A stretch of 58,903 nucleotides of DNA, filler included. It is 8 parts of 8 records of this genome, joined end to end, with 100 filler letters (N's around TTAATTAATTAA, not from the genome) between each part and the next. Parts side by side here need not be neighbours in the genome. Positions count along the whole stretch, not along the records: positions 34,232 to 44,232 come from SRR31147125_816; 7 more parts are not named here. One strand, 5' to 3'. The first letter of the stretch is position 1, and every line of letters begins with the position of its first letter. Made by a program: the position numbers and the translations under genes. The notes under the pieces were generated by a model that made no database searches, was not told where the DNA came from, and saw nothing but the letters and a program-made list of their open reading frames with translations. Below are positions 38,570 to 58,140 of the stretch, one piece after another.

Positions 38570-40949
38570 ATGAAGTATAAGAACAAAAAGTATATTGTTT
38601 TCCCATTTGTATTTGGGGTCATTTACTGGATATTGGAATCCATTCTTGATTATTTTTACTCAGGTACAGCCACACTCGATAATAATTTATTCTCTACTAT
38701 ATCAGACTATCATTTTTATGCACGCACCACTGTGATATTATGTATTTTTATATTTGGAGTCATTCTATCAAAAGTACTAAAGAAATATGAGGTTGCGGAA
38801 CAGGAATTGAGAGAACAAAAACAACGGTATACTCTGGCCACTGAGACAGGAAAAGTTAGTGTTTGGGACTATAATATAAAAACGAAGGATCTCTATCTCG
38901 ATCCAAACTTAAAATCATCACTCGGTTATGCAGATCATGAAATTCAAAACAACCTGGATGCCTGGATGAAGCTGGTGCATCCTGAGGATCATCAAAAAAT
39001 ACAAAAAGATATCAGAGAACATATAGACGGAAAAATATCAAAGTTTGAAACGATCCACAGAATGGTGCATAAAAATGGCAGTACACGCCGATTTTTTGTA
39101 CGTGGGCAGGCTTTACATGATGATAACGGTCAGCCATATCGCCTGATAGGAACGGACACAGATATTACTCAGTACCATATAATGGCTCAAAAATTACGCG
39201 CGAGTGAGGAAAAATTTCGTGCCTTGACCGAACATTCTCAAGACATTATCATGCGATTTGACCGACAACACAGACACCTGTATGTAAATTCAGCTATTTC
39301 GATACTTTTTGATCTTGAGCCAAAGGATTTTATTGGTAAAACGCATGAGGAATTAGGATTTTCAGCTGACATGTGCCATTATTGGAAACAAAATCTACAA
39401 AAAGTTTTTGATACAGGTCTCCCTGTTGAAGAAGAATTTGAAATTGAAGGTAAAAACGGACCGATTGTCTTTGATTGGAGGCTAGTTCCCGAATTCAACG
39501 CTAACAACATAGTTGAAACAGTTATGACCACGGCACGTGATATCACCTTGCGTAAAAAAGCCGAAAAAAACTTAAAGAGCGTAATAAATACATTCAGACA
39601 ATCCTGGACAACCTGCCTATTGGCCTGGCTGTATATAGAATCAACGACAAAAAGGTGGCGTATCTTAATAATAAATTTGAAGATATATGTGGTTGGCCTC
39701 ACAATAGTTTTTTGACCAGGGATGATTTCTACAATAAAGTCTTTCAGGATGTTCATTATCGGAAAAAAGTAAGAGATAGAATAGTCGCTGATCTCAACAA
39801 TCCTGATTCTGCAAATTTGAAATGGGGAAATATAACAATTAGAACAAAAACCGGAAAAAGAAAATCATTACTATTAGTAATATTCCTCTCCTGGAGCAAA
39901 ATTTAATGATATCAACCATCAGGAATGTCACTAAAAAAAGAAAAATTGAAAATGCCCTGAAAGATAGTGAGCAAAAATTCAGAACCATAGCAGAACAAAG
40001 CTTCGACATCATCTTTGCATTTGATGTAGATGGTAATCTATCCTTTGTGTCTTCTTCAGCCGAGAGAGTTCTAAGTTACAGCGTAGATGAACTAATAGTT
40101 CATAATGTTCTCGATTACGCTATCAAGCATTCTTCTCAAAAAATCACTCATTCTTTCAACGATATCATCAATGGTAACACGGTTGAGAATCTGGAGGTAC
40201 CTCTAGTTACGAATAAAGGCATTGTTGTCAGCATGGACGTCAATGCCAGTCCTCTTTATAGAAACGGGAAAATTGTCGGTGCCCTGGCTATCGCTAGAGA
40301 CGTGACTGATCGTAGACGAACCGAAAAACAACTCAAACAATCTCTTCTTGAAAAAGAGGTACTTTTAAAAGAGATTCACCATCGGGTTAAAAATAATCTT
40401 CAAGTCATAACCAGTCTGATAAACCTTCAATCAAATCTCATCCACGACAAGCAGGCGTTGAACGCCTTCAAGGAAACTAAAGTTCGTGTCAAATCGATGG
40501 CACTTGTTCACGAAAAATTATATCAGTCCAACGATTATACTCAAATTGATTTTAATGACTATATCCACTCGCTTGTGGGTAATTTGTTTCAAATATATGC
40601 AATTACAGGCAATATATCCCTGGAAGTGAATGCCCAAAATACCTCTTTCAATATCAATAAAGCTGTGCCATGTGGACTTTTAATCAATGAACTCTTATCT
40701 AATGCTATCAAGCACGCATTTCCTAATGGCCAACAGGGTAAAATAACTATAAATCTGCATTTGATAAATAACAAATTTGAATTAATCGTAAAAGACAATG
40801 GTGTTGGGCTGCCGGAACACATTGATATAAAGAACAATGATTCATTAGGATTACAACTGGTTAGTATTCTTACGGAACAATTGGAAGGGCAAATAGAACT
40901 TTCAAGAAAAACCGGCACAACTTTTAAAATCCAGTTCGATAATTTTTAG
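38570..40949 (+). CDS. Membrane-anchored multi-PAS sensor histidine kinase (HisKA_2 type); two homopolymer frameshifts (~39567, ~39860); about 793 aa when joined
   Basis: Two N-terminal TM helices; PAS/PAC motifs ('VHPEDH', 'DIT', 'ARDVTDR'); H-box 'EIHHRVKNNLQ'; 'NELLSNAIKHAF', 'DNGVG' and 'SLGL'. Confidence 0.9.
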
Positions 40950-41340
40950 ATATAATTGTTATCAACGCTTCCAATACTCCTTAAATCAAGTATACTGTTA
41001 ATCAAGGTTCATCATTTTACCCCTTTTTGCTATAGATACACCATTTGAAGTAACGCCCCTCCCCTGAATTCCCGAAACGAGCACTCGGCATGACACCCTC
41101 TTTTTTCGAAGGCAATATGACATTTACACAAATGTAATTAGTTCAAACACCTAAATCGTTCGCAAAAAAAACGAGTGTCACTCACTCAAGCAATTCTCTC
41201 TGTCTAATTCATGCTTTCATAATTCCCTCTCATTTTTCATAAAACTTTTGACACGACCATCTCAGCCGAAACAACTCATCCTTTAGCTGTTTTCACAATG
41301 TAACAATTTTCAAATAGTATAAAAGGCTATGCAATCTAAT

Positions 41341-41370
41341 AAAAAAAGCCCTATCCTCTGACAGGGCTTT
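41341..41370 (-). terminator. Intrinsic terminator of the sigma54 transcript
   Basis: Minus strand AAAGCCCTGTC-AGAG-GATAGGGCTTTTTTT. One pair is G-U on the minus strand but an A-C mismatch on the plus strand, which favours the minus orientation. Confidence 0.75.
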
Positions 41371-41417
41371 CTTTGTTGCTTCACAAGGTGCTATGCTCTG
41401 GCTGCAAACAATGAGTG

Positions 41418-41456
41418 CTAATCACTAAATAGAATTGGGGGAAAGGATTTATACAT
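41418..41456 (-). CDS. Possible micropeptide MYKSFPPILFSD
   Basis: AAAGGGGG (SD-like) lies 9 nt upstream of ATG 41456; stop TAG at 41420-41418. Confidence 0.3.
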   Translation of the reverse strand: MYKSFPPILFSD

Positions 41457-41485
41457 GTTACGATGCCCCCTTTGTTCAGATTTTA

Positions 41486-41501
41486 TGCAAACCATATGCC
41501 A
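41486..41501 (-). promoter_or_regulatory. Sigma54 (RpoN) -24/-12 promoter
   Basis: Minus strand TGGCATATGGTTTGCA; the GG and GC dinucleotides have the canonical 12-bp offset. Confidence 0.75.
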
Positions 41502-41682
41502 CAGAGATATCAACGACCAAATATATGTTTATATTTCATTTGCACTACCAACAAAAAAGCATTTTTTACAACATTTAACCACCAATTTGAAACGGCAGTA
41601 ACAAATTTGTCAACCTGCTAAAAATAAAAATAATCTCACTTGGTAATTTTAAATAAACTTTAAAAATAATTTGTTAACTGTA

Positions 41683-41711
41683 TTGACATTCAAAATTTTA
41701 TTTTTTAGATT
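41683..41711 (+). promoter_or_regulatory. Sigma70-type promoter for the peptide operon
   Basis: TTGACA(41683)-17 bp-TAGATT(41706). Confidence 0.6.
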
Positions 41712-41942
41712 ATCAAACTAAAAAAATAGTACTGCACCAGGAACTTTACGCATTTAGTCGCTAACAATAAAGCGGGGAGGAAATCAACGACTTTACATCT
41801 ATGACAACAATTTGTCAGGCAACTTTTTAGGATCTGCTAAACTTCCTGGGATCAGTGCATTAAAGCAGCAGCCAGCATCCCTCTGTAATCTGGCCACCTC
41901 GAATACGGATCATGTCAACTCTTCATTATAAAGGAGTATGAC

Positions 41943-42185
41943 ATGAAAAAAGCAATCGTATTTATTTTGATGGGTGGTATTTACATCCTGTTGGCTATTG
42001 GAGCATCATGGGCTAACAATTCTGGAACAGTCGATGATTTCGTTAATTTTTTAGGATTACAATCTAATTCAGTACTATCTGATAATTCAGGTGGTGATCA
42101 GGGACCTTTAAAAGGGACGGCACCTTCAAATTTACCGATTCCGTCACCCCCGACACCACCACCAAATGTAATTGTCTCGGAATAA
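41943..42185 (+). CDS. Small secreted protein/prepeptide (80 aa) with Pro-rich C-terminus
   Basis: RBS AAGGAG 6 nt upstream; Sec-type signal MKKAIVFILMGGIYILLAIGASWA; tail 'PSNLPIPSPPTPPPNVIVSE'. Confidence 0.75.
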   Translation: MKKAIVFILMGGIYILLAIGASWANNSGTVDDFVNFLGLQSNSVLSDNSGGDQGPLKGTAPSNLPIPSPPTPPPNVIVSE

Positions 42186-42272
42186 TTTTCACACATATGT
42201 TTTTATTGTTGATGTTATCAAGTACAAGTTTTAAATATTTTATAGTAGGCATGGTCTGCTATTCGAGGTGAT

Positions 42273-43355
42273 ATGAAGATGGGCAGATATAATTTTGCGA
42301 TTCTTAAAAAAATCGCTAACCTGTGGTTGCTTTTCAATGTAGTCATGATTATTGTATCATATCTACCTCATTGGCCTATGCCCTATATCAGCTGGATGAA
42401 TTTATCACTTTATTTTCTCGCGTTCATAAGTACGATCTTTATTGCAAAGGCGGAAAAATATAATAGAGATACATTAATTCCGCTCGCAATTCTTTTCTTT
42501 CTTTACGCGGTTCCATCCGTATTTCTTATTCTAATAGGAAAAAACTTTAGCTTTGGTAGCGATACCTTATCCTGGTTAACTTTCCGCTACTATTATCTGA
42601 TTATACTTTTTTTCTTTGCATATAGTATTTTATATTATGCTGCAAAAAATGCACTTCAACCTGGCATACCCATTTTGCTCAACGCGGCAACATTTATCTT
42701 TGTTGCCGCTGTCTTTTTTGTTCATTTTCATGTGCTTATCTTTAATCCCTCTGTACCGCATTATAATGAAATTTTTATTTCTAAAAAATTTACATACTAT
42801 ATCTTACCGCTTTTTTCTGTTTTTCTTTACGGAGTCCTGAATCCATTTTTAAAACCGAAACACGGTGAATATACCCATGCCATTATGGCTATTTTAGCTT
42901 TTTTAAGCCTGAGAGAATTTGCCATCACTCTGTCAGAAATGAAAAATGTTTTTTTCTTTGGAACGGATCAATACTTTTTAGCATTCACTTTAATCATTCT
43001 AAACTTTTTCCTGTTTAAAAAACTTAATTTTGTTTATTCTACAGCCGGACAAATCTACACGAAAATTCTTTATAATGATCTTCAAATTCCCAACCTAAAA
43101 TTAGAAAGCAGAGAAAAAGGACGCTTGTCTAAATTTGCGTTGTTTGTCTATTTTATCTATTTAAAACGAGCTCTGTTAATCCCGTTATCTTTTATAATGT
43201 TATTTTTTATTAAATATATGGAACCCCCATTAATTGTAAGTCTCAATTTAATTTTTATTGGATTGATGCTTTTTATAATCATCCTGTTCATGATTTATAC
43301 TTTTAATCGAAAACAAAAAAAAGATGGTTATATAATTTCCAATTTTGATCATTAA
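42273..43355 (+). CDS. Polytopic membrane protein of unknown function (about 10 hydrophobic segments)
   Basis: RBS GAGGTG; a 360-aa ORF dominated by hydrophobic helices with no recognisable catalytic motif. Confidence 0.75.
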   Translation: MKMGRYNFAILKKIANLWLLFNVVMIIVSYLPHWPMPYISWMNLSLYFLAFISTIFIAKAEKYNRDTLIPLAILFFLYAVPSVFLILIGKNFSFGSDTLSWLTFRYYYLIILFFFAYSILYYAAKNALQPGIPILLNAATFIFVAAVFFVHFHVLIFNPSVPHYNEIFISKKFTYYILPLFSVFLYGVLNPFLKPKHGEYTHAIMAILAFLSLREFAITLSEMKNVFFFGTDQYFLAFTLIILNFFLFKKLNFVYSTAGQIYTKILYNDLQIPNLKLESREKGRLSKFALFVYFIYLKRALLIPLSFIMLFFIKYMEPPLIVSLNLIFIGLMLFIIILFMIYTFNRKQKKDGYIISNFDH

Positions 43356-43383
43356 TTTAAGGGATATGTTGAGGTGAGGTGTT

Positions 43384-44232
43384 ATGGTCAGTTTATCATT
43401 AAATGAGTCAAAATTATTAGGCAACAGCCCGGAAATTGAACGAGTTCGTAAATCCATTCGAGCTTTTTCAAAAATCAGGGATAATGTGCTTATACTAGGT
43501 GATGTCGGTAGCGGTCGCACCTTTACCGCTACAAGTATCCATCGTTTGGGAAATACCCAAAATCTTCCTTTTATTACCATTCCTTGTGGTGCCATCGGTG
43601 ATACTATTGACAAGGAACACATTTTAGGGGGCTCAGATAAAGAGCAACAAAAAAACGCGGAACTCTTTAAAGCGGGAAAAGGTACGATCTATCTTCAGGA
43701 TGTGGATCGCTTACACCCGGATCTGCAGGATAGGCTCTATAATTTGATTACAACCTATTCTCCTGATCATGGAAACGGTAATAAAATGCTGGCTTCCCGA
43801 ATAATTGCTTCTGCTGAACCCTCTTTGGAAGAAATGGCACGAAAAAGAAAATATAATTTCGCACTTTACCAGGAACTATCCAAAGCCCGGATTAACGTAC
43901 CCTCTATTCAGAACAGACGACAGGATATCATTATCATTTTCACCCATTTTATTGAATCCTATTGCGAAGAATTTGGCAAAAGCATTCCAACCATATCCTA
44001 TGAGATTTTTGAAGAGATCATTGATTACGATTGGCCTGGAAATGTGGAAGAAATAAAAAATTGTGTCCGAAATATGATTATCCTCTCTCCTGAGGGTGAA
44101 TTATCCGCCGAATTTCTACCATTCCATGTCCAGCGAAATCCTTTGGAAGCTCTCACAGTAAAGGACCTGCCTTCCGCTATATCTGAAGTAGAACGTTTTC
44201 TTATTCGTCATGCTCTGGCTCGTTTTGAGGGG
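43384..44232 (+). CDS. Sigma54-interaction-domain (bEBP-like) AAA+ regulator with degenerate motifs, 3'-truncated
   Basis: 'LLGNSPEI', 'VLILGDVGSGRT', 'PFITIPC', 'GTIYLQDV', 'RIIASA', 'DWPGNVEE' and the start of a Fis-HTH 'ERFLIRHALARFEG'. There is no GAFTGA and no receiver domain. Confidence 0.85.
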
Positions 44233-44332
44233 NNNNNNNNNNNNNNNNNNNNNNNNNNNNNNNNNNNNNNNNNNNNTTAATTAATTAANNNNNNNNNNNN
44301 NNNNNNNNNNNNNNNNNNNNNNNNNNNNNNNN
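44233..44332. other. Artificial contig spacer
   Basis: N-run + TTAATTAATTAA + N-run. Confidence 0.99.
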
Positions 44333-55740: not shown

Positions 55741-58140
55741 TTAAAGCTTTGACCTTTTTGCCATGAAATTTACTGAGAATGTAGCAAATGCTACAACTGT
55801 AACTGAACTAAGAGGCATTAATATAGCAGCAATGATTGGAGATAGGCTTCCTTGAACAGCAAAATAAATACCAACAAAATTGTACAAGAATGAAAGCAAA
55901 AAACCTAACCAAACAATACGAATGCTGGTTTTACTGAATTTAATAAACCGATGTAATGATGCAAATTTATCAGATTGAAGAATGGCGTCGCAAGCAGGTG
56001 TGAAATTGTAAATGTTATCAGCGATAACCATTCCCACTTTACTTTCATTTAAGGCTCCGGCATCATTTAATCCATCACCAATCATTAATGAAGCATCTCC
56101 TTTTTGTTGCAGTGTTTTAATGTATTTTAATTTGTCGGTTGGTGATTGGTTGAAGTTTAGTTGAGCCTGATTTTTAAATAAGGGAGTCAGGTTCTCCCTT
56201 TCCGATTCATTGTCGCCACTTATTAAATGTAAGTCATAATTGGGTTGAAGTTTGGCAATGGTTTTTTCAAGCCCTTGGCGATAATTATTTTCAAATTGGA
56301 AGTACCCAAGTACCTTTTTATTCATATAAATCCAAACCTGGGTTTTCAAATTTTCGGTTGAATGATTTTCTCCAGTAACAAAATACTTCGAGCCAATATT
56401 AATTGTTTCCCCATCAACTATTGCCGAAATACCGAGCGATGGAATTTCCTTAAAGTCATAAATTCCAATTAGATCTTTTTCTTTTATAGATTGAAAAATA
56501 ATTTTGCTTAGCGGATGGGTTGATTGAAAAACCAGAGATTTAATTATTTTAAGTTGAAGCGGATTTAGCTGTTCTCCAATAAACTCTGTTTTAGAAGATT
56601 GAGCATGAGTGATGGTGCCTGTTTTATCAAAAACAATAGATTTTATTTTTGAAAGTCGTTCAATTACATCTGAGTTTTTAAGGTATAACCCCTTTCGTCC
56701 AAATTGTCGTAAGGTGCTGCCAAATGTAAAAGGAATAGTGAGGGCTAATGCACAAGGACAGGCAATGATTAATACTGATGTAAATGCGAAAACTGCTTTC
56801 TCTATATCTTTAAAATACAAAAAAGTGCCTGCAATCGCAGCTATAGAAATAATAATAATTGTAAAATACTGACTGACTTTGTTGATTAGCAAAGACATTG
56901 CAGGAGTATCTTTCTCCGATTGATTGTCCTGATTCCAAAGTTGTGTCAAATAACTTTGTTCAACCTCTTTTTGAACCAGTAATTCAATAGCAGTGCCAGT
57001 TTGTCGTCCTCCTGCAAAAATAAAATCGCCTTCATTTTTCGAAACAGGCATCGATTCACCTGTTACAAAGCTATAATCAATATTGGCTTGCCCTTTCATA
57101 ATGGTGGAATCAGCAGGAATTAACTCTTGGTTTCTAACAAGAATTCGATCTCCTGATTTCAGCTTATCAAGAGGAATGGTTTCATTTTCAGTACCGTGAA
57201 TTTTTGTTACTGCTACCGGAAAATAGGATTTGTAATTCCGCTCAAAGGTAAGTGCAGCATATGTTTTACTCTGATACCATTTCCCAATTAATAGAAAGAA
57301 TACCAATCCGGTAAGCGAATCAAAATAACCTATTCCATGACCACCAATAATCTCAATGGTGCTTTGTACGAAAAGAGTTATTAAGCCCAGGGAGATAGGC
57401 AAGTCTATGCTAATAATTTTTTTCAGAAGGCTTTTGTATGCAGCTGAAAAATAGTCGTTCGCACAGTAAATAAGCACAGGTAAACTTAAAGCAAAACTTA
57501 ACCAGGCAAAAACAAGCCTAAAGTCAGTTTCCAGATTTTCACTTCCTGGCAGATATTGTGGAAAGTGATAGAGCATAGCATTCATAAAACTGAATCCTGC
57601 AATTCCAATTTTTATTAATAAACTATGAGATGATTTAGCCTTGTTCGGTTTTTCCAGACTTTGCTGATTAATTTCTGGGACATAATGGATTGAAGCAAGT
57701 AATTCTACTAATCTTCGCAAAGTAATTTCAGAATCGTTAAAGGTGATACTAACTTCCTTCTTAGGGAAATTTACTGATGACTGAATAATTCCACTGTTTA
57801 AGGTGTGAAGATTTTCAAGTAGCCAAATGCAAGATGCACAATGTATGCCAGGGATAAAAAATCGAACTTTAGAAATTCCGGAATCAGAAAAATCCAGTAA
57901 GCGTTCTTTTATTTCATCCAATTCAAGAAAAGAATACTTCTCATCACTTGCAATTTGTTCAGTATTAACTCTGATTCCTGGAGAGTTCTCAAGCTCATAA
58001 TACTTTTCCATTTGGTTTTCATTCAATAACTGATAAACGGTTTGGCAGCCATGACAACAAAATGGTTTTTCATTCCAGATAATTGGTGCTGATCCGCAGT
58101 CGTCACCACAATGAATACAAGTGTGATTATCTTTTTCCAA
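55741..58140 (-). CDS. ccoI: P1B-type heavy-metal (Cu) ATPase (FixI)
   Basis: 'CIHC...CCHGC', 'HCASC', 'TGES', 'CPCAL', 'DKTGT' and 'GDGLND'. Confidence 0.92.
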   Translation of the reverse strand: MEKDNHTCIHCGDDCGSAPIIWNEKPFCCHGCQTVYQLLNENQMEKYYELENSPGIRVNTEQIASDEKYSFLELDEIKERLLDFSDSGISKVRFFIPGIHCASCIWLLENLHTLNSGIIQSSVNFPKKEVSITFNDSEITLRRLVELLASIHYVPEINQQSLEKPNKAKSSHSLLIKIGIAGFSFMNAMLYHFPQYLPGSENLETDFRLVFAWLSFALSLPVLIYCANDYFSAAYKSLLKKIISIDLPISLGLITLFVQSTIEIIGGHGIGYFDSLTGLVFFLLIGKWYQSKTYAALTFERNYKSYFPVAVTKIHGTENETIPLDKLKSGDRILVRNQELIPADSTIMKGQANIDYSFVTGESMPVSKNEGDFIFAGGRQTGTAIELLVQKEVEQSYLTQLWNQDNQSEKDTPAMSLLINKVSQYFTIIIISIAAIAGTFLYFKDIEKAVFAFTSVLIIACPCALALTIPFTFGSTLRQFGRKGLYLKNSDVIERLSKIKSIVFDKTGTITHAQSSKTEFIGEQLNPLQLKIIKSLVFQSTHPLSKIIFQSIKEKDLIGIYDFKEIPSLGISAIVDGETINIGSKYFVTGENHSTENLKTQVWIYMNKKVLGYFQFENNYRQGLEKTIAKLQPNYDLHLISGDNESERENLTPLFKNQAQLNFNQSPTDKLKYIKTLQQKGDASLMIGDGLNDAGALNESKVGMVIADNIYNFTPACDAILQSDKFASLHRFIKFSKTSIRIVWLGFLLSFLYNFVGIYFAVQGSLSPIIAAILMPLSSVTVVAFATFSVNFMAKRSKL

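Follow-up and report, generated by a model that had tools for sequence, protein, structure and literature searches.

At the end of one contig (positions 34232-44232) of the DNA analysed here, three genes on the + strand encode an 80-aa protein with a proline-rich tail, a 360-aa polytopic membrane protein and an AAA+ protein related to bacterial enhancer-binding proteins (EBPs). The whole stretch, hereafter the window, is 58,903 nt long and consists of eight contigs joined by N spacers. Our preferred reading, held with moderate confidence, is that two separate things meet at this locus: a three-gene regulatory module of the phylum KSB1/Zhuqueibacterota, and a lineage-specific small RNA (sRNA) gene with a sigma54-type promoter. 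We observed the conservation, domain make-up and motif losses of the module directly, and its best reading, from architecture and by analogy with PspF, would be a membrane-controlled regulator of sigma70-type promoters. An initial annotation of this DNA had joined the same parts into a single peptide-signalling circuit; open reading frame (ORF), Pfam and motif scans found each of its features in place. The features of the module are as follows.

41683..41711, + strand: sigma70-type operon promoter TTGACA-17-TAGATT, from motif scan and clade conservation
41894..41916, + strand: 5' arm of a long-range helix, core CACCTCGAATA at 41895-41905 plus GATCATGTC
41910..41946, + strand: local hairpin TCATGTCAA / (A)TGACATGA, closing around the small gene's start codon and Shine-Dalgarno sequence (41931-41936)
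41943..42185, + strand: small protein gene, 80 aa, C-terminal end PIPSPPTPPPNVIVSE
42248..42270, + strand: 3' arm of the long-range helix, including the Shine-Dalgarno sequence GAGGTG (42265-42270) of the membrane gene
42273..43355, + strand: membrane protein gene, 360 aa, polytopic, unannotated family; residues 30-262 modelled as a seven-transmembrane (7TM) bundle
43384..44232, + strand: regulator gene, receiver-less atypical EBP, AAA+ with lid; last ~20-30 aa cut off

Nine related loci were drawn from public contigs, and the comparison covered 27 distinct loci in all (the window, L006, L007 and L018-L041). The small Pro-tailed protein gene lies directly upstream of the membrane gene in 26 of the 27; a script found 24, L023 was added from reading the sequences, and L034, where the gene is partly N-masked, was added from its visible proline repeats. 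The small gene was not found in L041. Directly downstream of the membrane gene, the AAA+ gene is present in all 26 loci having downstream DNA, split and truncated by the contig end in L038. The flanking genes, by contrast, differ between loci (DnaG, S41 peptidase, U5-methyltransferase, receiver, HAD hydrolase and PALP, a pyridoxal-phosphate enzyme), those upstream of the related loci being a co-directional dnaG, S41 peptidase, methyltransferase or receiver gene. Because the flanks vary from locus to locus, the unit comprises three genes. Judged by this retained gene order, the trio is a genuine conserved operon and an undescribed module, which bears out the initial suspicion of an operon of an unrecognised kind. 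A check for membrane-protein homologues that had lost these neighbours, or that belonged to a known family, found the neighbours retained, apart from the small gene in L041, and no match to a transporter or enzyme family.

The module appears to be characteristic of one phylum. A profile search found the membrane family in 70 of 167 genomes of KSB1/Zhuqueibacterota, with two copies on separate contigs in at least 13 of the phylum's genomes (e.g., G052, G069, G026, G057, G064, G063 and G062). A search of 5.8 billion clusters returned only 12 relatives of the 360-aa protein, and 1.84 billion proteins yielded 49 family representatives at 50% identity. Related genome G005 is a metagenome-assembled genome of candidate division KSB1, the phylum that PMC11683472 today calls Zhuqueibacterota. 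A term search of that paper returned neither 'sigma' nor 'two-component', and our searches on the phylum, sigma-54 and EBP/7TM, with paper supplements outside their scope, found no published account of the trio. Gaps in the cover of the stretch by sequencing runs X2, X6 and X7 are not taken as evidence of absence.

In the regulator, Pfam places Sigma54_activat (PF00158, E 2.2e-19) at residues 11-170 and also detects AAA_lid_14 (E 3.2e-18), with no domain ahead of residue 11, in keeping with the initial remark that a receiver domain is lacking. Full-length homologues measure 301-327 aa and carry a C-terminal Fis-type helix-turn-helix (HTH), most of which is missing from the window copy; its ORF runs into the N spacer at 44233, the contig-end truncation already remarked upon. 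Aligned with ZraR, the window regulator reads GDVGSGRT for GDSGTGKE at Walker A, GGSDKEQQKNA for HEKGAFTGADK (GAFTGA) at the sigma54-contact loop, and YLQD (within IYLQD) for FLDE at Walker B. GAFTGA was found in 0/20 regulators, as was the Walker B Asp-Glu pair; the Walker A residue is Lys in nine and Arg in 11, and the window's clade has exchanged Lys for Arg. Six loci were left out of these counts, four of which (L026, L031, L035 and L037) show the same losses by eye. With such motifs, the regulator cannot remodel or activate sigma54 polymerase, a caveat that the initial annotation had itself raised and that extends to the entire family.

Family models point in the same direction. All 28 NCBIfam models listed for the regulator fall below their own cut-offs: the EBP models match far under cut-off (the best, PrdR, at 189 bits vs. 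795), and the PspF models, at E 1e-41 to 1e-57, also lie under theirs. Measured against bacterial EBPs of the NtrC/PspF type, the regulator has the AAA+ domain and lacks GAFTGA, the Walker A/B residues and an equivalog-level score. Homology to EBPs in a protein whose GAFTGA and hydrolysis residues have gone is the pattern of an atypical EBP, and VpsR is the second-best relative of the regulator in the PDB (E 2.7e-29). As far as its motifs tell, the regulator belongs with the atypical EBPs, which work independently of sigma54. Six of these, VpsR among them, are described as lacking GAFTGA and the Walker B residues and as using sigma70 (PMC6158489). Caulobacter NtrC and Myxococcus PexR are reported elsewhere as further cases. 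Like VpsR, TyrR, PhhR, HupR, HsfA and NtrX, the regulator here joins an EBP-type AAA+ domain without GAFTGA and with a degenerate Walker B to a C-terminal HTH. To our knowledge, all named atypical EBPs carry an N-terminal regulatory domain (receiver or ACT/PAS), whereas the regulator here starts with its AAA+ domain and is always encoded behind two dedicated envelope proteins.

The larger of these envelope proteins belongs to an unannotated family. Neither Pfam nor NCBIfam offers a match for the 360-aa protein, and the Pfam scan detected no HisKA or HATPase domain, consistent with the polytopic protein without a kinase domain of the initial annotation. PADLOC matched neither this protein nor the small one, its RtcR/PspF-type AAA+ models alone falling on the regulator. 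Across 40 family members scanned there was no catalytic-family, transporter-family or Pfam 7TM match; four single weak hits appeared, the best being Acyl_transf_3 (E 0.004) in one member. The same number of sequences revealed five near-invariant residues (W18, W41, N43, Y186 and S256) and no invariant polar triad. The AlphaFold2 model (mean predicted local distance difference score, pLDDT, 87.9; predicted template-modelling score, pTM, 0.87) has 13 helices, and all 50 of the 50 best structural rows from an exhaustive aligner were GPCR-type (G-protein-coupled receptor) 7TM bundles, over residues ~30-262. The ESM Atlas was uninformative (best score 0.84, unnamed clusters). The model weakly suggests a 7TM receptor-like core with one additional N-terminal and two or three additional C-terminal helices (~10 transmembrane segments in total). 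By the positive-inside rule, applied to sequence and model, both ends and the segments KPKHGEY-H and YST-GQIY...IPNLKLE-R would be cytoplasmic, and the PHWP-P--SW-N loop outward-facing.

The small protein also returned zero Pfam and zero NCBIfam matches. It consists of an N-terminal hydrophobic helix with Tyr14, a conserved segment past ASWAN, a variable linker and a P-[IVLM]-P-x-P tail. M1, Y14, P67 and P69 are invariant in 20/20 sequences, and the placement of an invariant Tyr within the N-terminal hydrophobic helix favours a retained membrane helix over a disposable signal peptide. In the window's clade, an AxA-like site before Asn25 is compatible with cleavage. Five loci (L024, L026, L034, L036 and L039) carry the P-[IVLM]-P-x-P-P unit in tandem repeats, and this repetition suggests that the unit is a functional external motif. 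The copies number five to six of NIPVPPPPYPEP... in L024 (711-1379), three of WDPCPNPPPPPPLP in L034 (upstream of the membrane gene), three of DPGDPPPPFA.IPN in L036 (2684-2986, - strand), and two each in L026 (1071-1430) and L039 (1207-1437). The initial annotation had read this protein as a secreted Pro-rich pheromone. The Pro-tailed ORF is real; the pheromone reading is made less plausible by the invariant Tyr14, and the three-gene unit contains no processing or export genes.

Two further observations concern the small gene. A 224-nt contig from a sediment metatranscriptome run spans 41896-42119 and begins at the 5' helix arm; this is a hint only, given that neither a contig end nor the RNA origin of a library amounts to proof of transcription. 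Seven loci (L026, L027, L028, L030, L031, L035 and L037) have a gene for an S41 C-terminal processing peptidase ahead of the unit and in the same orientation, with Pfam confirmation in L026 alone. This peptidase could process the Pro-rich tail.

Between the leader of the operon and the start of the membrane gene we found evidence for a long-range RNA helix that encloses the small ORF. Every subgroup, with 23 loci in all, carries a GACCCGAACAG-type motif 30-55 nt ahead of the small ORF. In the window, the partner of CACCTCGAATA is TATTCGAGGTG (42260-42270), while that of GATCATGTC (41908-41916) is GGCATGGTC (42248-42256), two G-U pairs being needed for the latter match. The exact 11-mer forms a forward/reverse pair around the small ORF in 5/5 genomes tested, its reverse copy lying directly ahead of the membrane gene and including that gene's Shine-Dalgarno sequence; other single 11-mer matches (n = 5) were at the level of a reversed-pattern control (15 hits there too). 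An inverted 11-mer pair is present at the second membrane-gene copy of G057 (contig C338) as well. When the 23 loci were aligned, 90% of the 299 cells of the 13-pair core were paired, as compared to 30-52% in slid controls. Seven pairs have changed on both sides, and compensatory cells number 41 vs. 16.8 +/- 3.1 after shuffling (0/500 shuffles reach 41), counts that overstate the significance of the helix because the sequences are related.

When 41885-42285 was folded (z -2.55), the core helix appeared in the minimum free energy structure, and the centroid showed the helix at its full 22 bp. The minimum free energy fold also contains the local hairpin at the small gene's start, a competitor of the long-range helix. 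Its nine pairs are 95.6% paired over the cells of 10 loci and are invariant, hence without covariation. These alternative folds suggest that in the window's clade the mRNA is able to hide either ribosome-binding site. Long-range stems that bracket a cistron are known from the RNase III processing stems of rRNA and of phage early mRNAs, and the arms here likewise lie outside the ORF and close it into a loop. They differ in that the 3' arm here coincides with the ribosome-binding site of the following gene, and in that the 5' arm can, in one clade, pair instead with the start of the enclosed gene. From this placement, we infer that the helix would set the ratio or the order of small-protein vs. 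receptor synthesis.

The operon promoter noted initially, TTGACA-17-TAGATT, has counterparts in related loci. A TTGACA(T/A)T ... TA-ATT pair occurs 150-260 nt upstream of the small gene in nine of the 10 loci of the window's clade, and the tenth has TATAAT only. This conservation supports the promoter better than the motif scan does. In a distant subgroup, a second promoter, TTGACA-N17-TATATT, stands immediately ahead of the 5' helix arm. A near-palindrome, TCG(C/T)AA-N6-7-T(A/G)CG, abuts the -35 element of that promoter in L025-L038, 20-45 nt upstream, and takes the form of a perfect palindrome, GTCGCA-N6-TGCGAC, in L027. We regard the TCGCAA-N6-7-TRCG repeat as a candidate operator of the regulator.

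Taken together, the architecture suggests how the module might work. The small protein, exported or membrane-anchored, would expose its P-[IVLM]-P-x-P-P motif, single or repeated, to the exterior of the cell. The regulator would bind DNA at sigma70-type promoters, its own probably among them, and act there independently of sigma54. As it has no sensory domain, its control is likely to come in trans from the membrane pair, perhaps through capture at the membrane followed by release, as with PspF and PspA/PspBC. The leader helix may block the membrane gene's ribosome-binding site, or it may be a site of double-strand processing; for the window's clade, the start region of the small gene offers part of the 5' arm an alternative partner.

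The Psp system is a close parallel. PspF is also a receiver-less AAA+ protein with an HTH, of ~300-330 aa and controlled in trans, and small membrane proteins belong to its regulon. The systems differ in that PspF has GAFTGA, hydrolyses ATP and drives a sigma54 promoter, whereas the operon here is not preceded by one. The envelope proteins here, moreover, have no PspA/IM30, PspB or PspC family match in Pfam or NCBIfam.

Besides the relatedness of the sequences behind the helix counts, several points weigh against this reading. Placement of the window organism in KSB1/Zhuqueibacterota is an assignment from homologues at 94-42% identity. By the scan alone, TTGACA-17-TAGATT sites are no more frequent than chance predicts for DNA as AT-rich as this (13 such sites vs. 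12.7 expected from shuffles). A further leader helix (leader helix 1) covaries elsewhere, with the window's own row unpaired, and we do not count it as part of the module. The structural case for a receptor is similarly open to doubt: the Z scores of the 7TM rows, 14.3-11.1 (root-mean-square deviation ~3.4-4.8 A, ~190-225 residues aligned), fall within the range of 11-14 that helical bundles reach by arrangement alone, Foldseek gave no PDB match to the model at E <= 0.001, and 7TMR-DISM-like bacterial receptors had no Pfam match in the 40 members. Contact between any two of the three proteins is backed by no experiment or co-fold; a co-fold of the membrane and small proteins scored 0.00 in a run without controls, which is evidence neither way.

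The second element of the locus is divergent from the operon and comprises the following features.

41486..41501, - strand: sigma54-type promoter (-24 TGGCAT, -12 TTGCA; TGGCATATGGTTTGCA), intergenic, the only strict match in the window
41338..41476, - strand: candidate sigma54-dependent small RNA, ~135 nt, predicted start ~41474-41476
41338..41377, - strand: intrinsic terminator hairpin (two-way), 15-bp stem plus U run in the fold; inverted repeat I1

The promoter and terminator that the initial annotation described here are both present: the sigma54 motif lies 182 bp from the operon's TTGACA (~180 bp was claimed), and the hairpin with its U run bounds a transcript of the claimed ~135 nt. Together they probably mark a real sRNA gene. 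TGGCATATGGTTTGCA (41501-41486) is the only strict match to TGGCAY-N5-TTGCW in 58,903 nt, with 0.28 expected, and rpoN is present in 5/5 related genomes, which makes sigma54 promoters plausible in the phylum. A ~93%-identical relative (run X3, contig of 7412 nt) aligns with the operon side over 41643-44232 (179 differences) and again over 41333-41504 (16 differences, 14 gap letters), whereas in place of 40963-41332 and 41505-41642 it has dissimilar DNA of about the same length. The second aligned block thus runs from 5 nt past the terminator end (41338) to 3 nt past the -24 element (41501). Indels of 1-5 nt at 41406-41427 in this relative fit a non-coding RNA and disfavour coding. They fall inside a 12-codon ORF, MYKSFPPILFSD, with a Shine-Dalgarno-like AAAGGGGG (41418-41456, - strand), which is accordingly probably not coding.

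That there is no gene here at all, the sigma54-like match being a chance one beside a two-way terminator that serves neighbouring genes, is a serious minority possibility. At least one strict match turned up in 23/100 shuffled windows, the predicted RNA folds with a z score of only -1.88 (-35.2 kcal/mol), and no RNA-derived contig or read covers the region. BLAST against five related genomes returned chance-level matches, mostly to the terminator (best E 0.007), a search that is little informative at 43-57% protein identity; the X3 alignment, for its part, says nothing of the state of the relative's -24/-12 elements. Set against this, ~0.005 matches would be expected in this 1-kb spacer (at 0.28 per 58.9 kb), the promoter-terminator spacing suits an sRNA, the end of the histidine-kinase gene lies 390 nt away, and the X3 relative keeps the block between two replaced spacers. 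The hairpin was not listed by a simple terminator scan. Rfam assigned no family (best hit 27.9 bits vs. a gathering score of 90), three weak matches at E <= 1 over 40900-42300 all falling on the terminator and none on the leader, and no tRNA or tmRNA was found at the sRNA.

GlmY, CrcZ and Pxr are other sigma54-dependent sRNAs that stand alone, with a -24/-12 promoter and an intrinsic terminator; the window sRNA shows no sequence or Rfam likeness to them. A check of the sigma54 motif in syntenic loci spoke against its conservation: when both strands of 26 related loci (105,127 nt) were searched at a score of 14 of 15 or better, intergenic DNA gave no match, and one hit fell within a coding region. 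On this distribution, we take the sRNA gene to be a local neighbour rather than a member of the three-gene unit. Its transcription would need another, GAFTGA-bearing activator, and no link to the module emerged. A duplex between the sRNA and the operon leader was rejected, as 221/500 random segments pair as well.

Other observations in and around this spacer may be recorded here. A near-palindrome, TAACAAATTTGTCAAC (41598-41614), is located upstream of both transcription units, ~130 nt from the predicted sRNA start and ~75 nt from the operon -35, and AATTTGT(C/T)AAC recurs at 41668-41678. It is a possible upstream site shared by sRNA and operon; the region is AT-rich, and the repeat falls within 41505-41642, which is replaced in the X3 relative. 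A contig of run X6 (2621 nt) matches the window at 41215-41258 alone (44 nt, five differences), in the kinase-sRNA spacer, and may reflect a short shared element or chance. Beyond the spacer, a multi-PAS HisKA_2/HATPase histidine kinase gene (38570-40949, + strand) is broken over three reading frames (Pfam-supported ORFs 38570-39715, 39655-39906 and 39906-40949), either by two frameshifts or by assembly errors. Sigma54-like near-matches at 57850 and 55873 were set aside as chance, being inside a 799-aa ORF (55741-58140, - strand). Read by eye, this ORF has a heavy-metal-binding-type IPGIHCASC stretch.

Returning to the operon, the membrane and small proteins could instead be an enzyme and its substrate, with the membrane protein (for example a glycosyl or acyl transferase, or an intramembrane protease) modifying or cleaving the Pro-rich tail and the AAA+ protein merely regulating the operon. 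The repeated P-x-P motifs, the S41 tail-specific peptidase gene upstream in seven loci and the unannotated state of the membrane family all suit this idea. We nevertheless consider it unlikely, given that the 40 members offered no catalytic-family match beyond single weak hits, the best being Acyl_transf_3 in one of them, and no invariant polar triad, and that the structural rows were receptor-type bundles rather than GT-C or protease folds.

The circuit proposed initially, in which a Pro-rich pheromone acts through the membrane sensor and the AAA+ regulator on the divergent sigma54 sRNA in the manner of LuxO and Qrr, has little chance of being correct. In the window, as at Vibrio luxO/qrr1, an EBP-family gene does lie near a divergent sigma54-driven small RNA, here back to back with the operon. 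Moreover, no external part of the small protein is better conserved than the Pro motif, which some homologues repeat as some precursors do their core peptides, and the ribosome-binding sites of the membrane and AAA+ genes ranked third and fifth of 60 ORF starts for pairing with the sRNA, a weak signal of ~1.8 standard deviations. The arrangement is, however, absent in the 26 related loci, which have no intergenic sigma54 motif and whose upstream genes are co-directional and unrelated. The window regulator lacks receiver, GAFTGA, Walker B glutamate and Walker A lysine, Rfam shows no Qrr match, and the invariant Tyr of the N-terminal helix suggests a retained anchor in a unit that has no peptidase or exporter. 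Peptide quorum sensing of the Agr/Com type likewise involves a receptor kinase and a dedicated processing/export gene, neither of which we met in the three-gene unit.

It is highly improbable that the inverted repeats around the small ORF are the DNA sites of an invertible switch (inverton): although their 11-28 nt arms flank 330-700 bp, a typical inverton size, and DNA repeats and paired RNA look alike by covariation alone, all 26 loci that have the small gene carry it in the same direction as the membrane gene, four public runs compared showed no strand-changing joints, no recombinase was noticed among the flanking ORFs read (no systematic recombinase search was made), pairing of the window's second helix segment, GAUCAUGUC/GGCAUGGUC, depends on two G-U pairs, the 3' arm overlaps the membrane-gene ribosome-binding site in every case, and the mismatches lean towards G-U on the sense strand (12 G-U-type vs. 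four A-C-type, an excess at p = 0.077 among rows that are not independent). An RNA helix is favoured over a DNA inversion site because of this G-U lean and because the small gene is never flipped.

The membrane-controlled module therefore remains our preferred reading of the operon, and what is new in it is an unannotated membrane family, a well-supported covarying helix between leader and ribosome-binding site, and an atypical EBP whose proposed envelope partners act in trans. Few atypical EBPs are known, and those few all have a sensor domain of their own. In a phylum that has no cultured members, a receiver-less EBP with two envelope proteins as its constant companions would represent another route from envelope to transcription. 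The leader helix, in turn, offers a compact and testable case of RNA-level control of subunit ratios inside an operon. As a long shot, we suggest that the 7TM receptor-like protein may sense the polyproline ligand of its own operon, tethered or released and sometimes in tandem, and may hold or release the ATPase-dead, receiver-less EBP-like factor, with the helix setting ligand:receptor stoichiometry and the sRNA perhaps feeding in at the receptor and regulator ribosome-binding sites. If true, such a route would be signalling without phosphorylation or sigma54.

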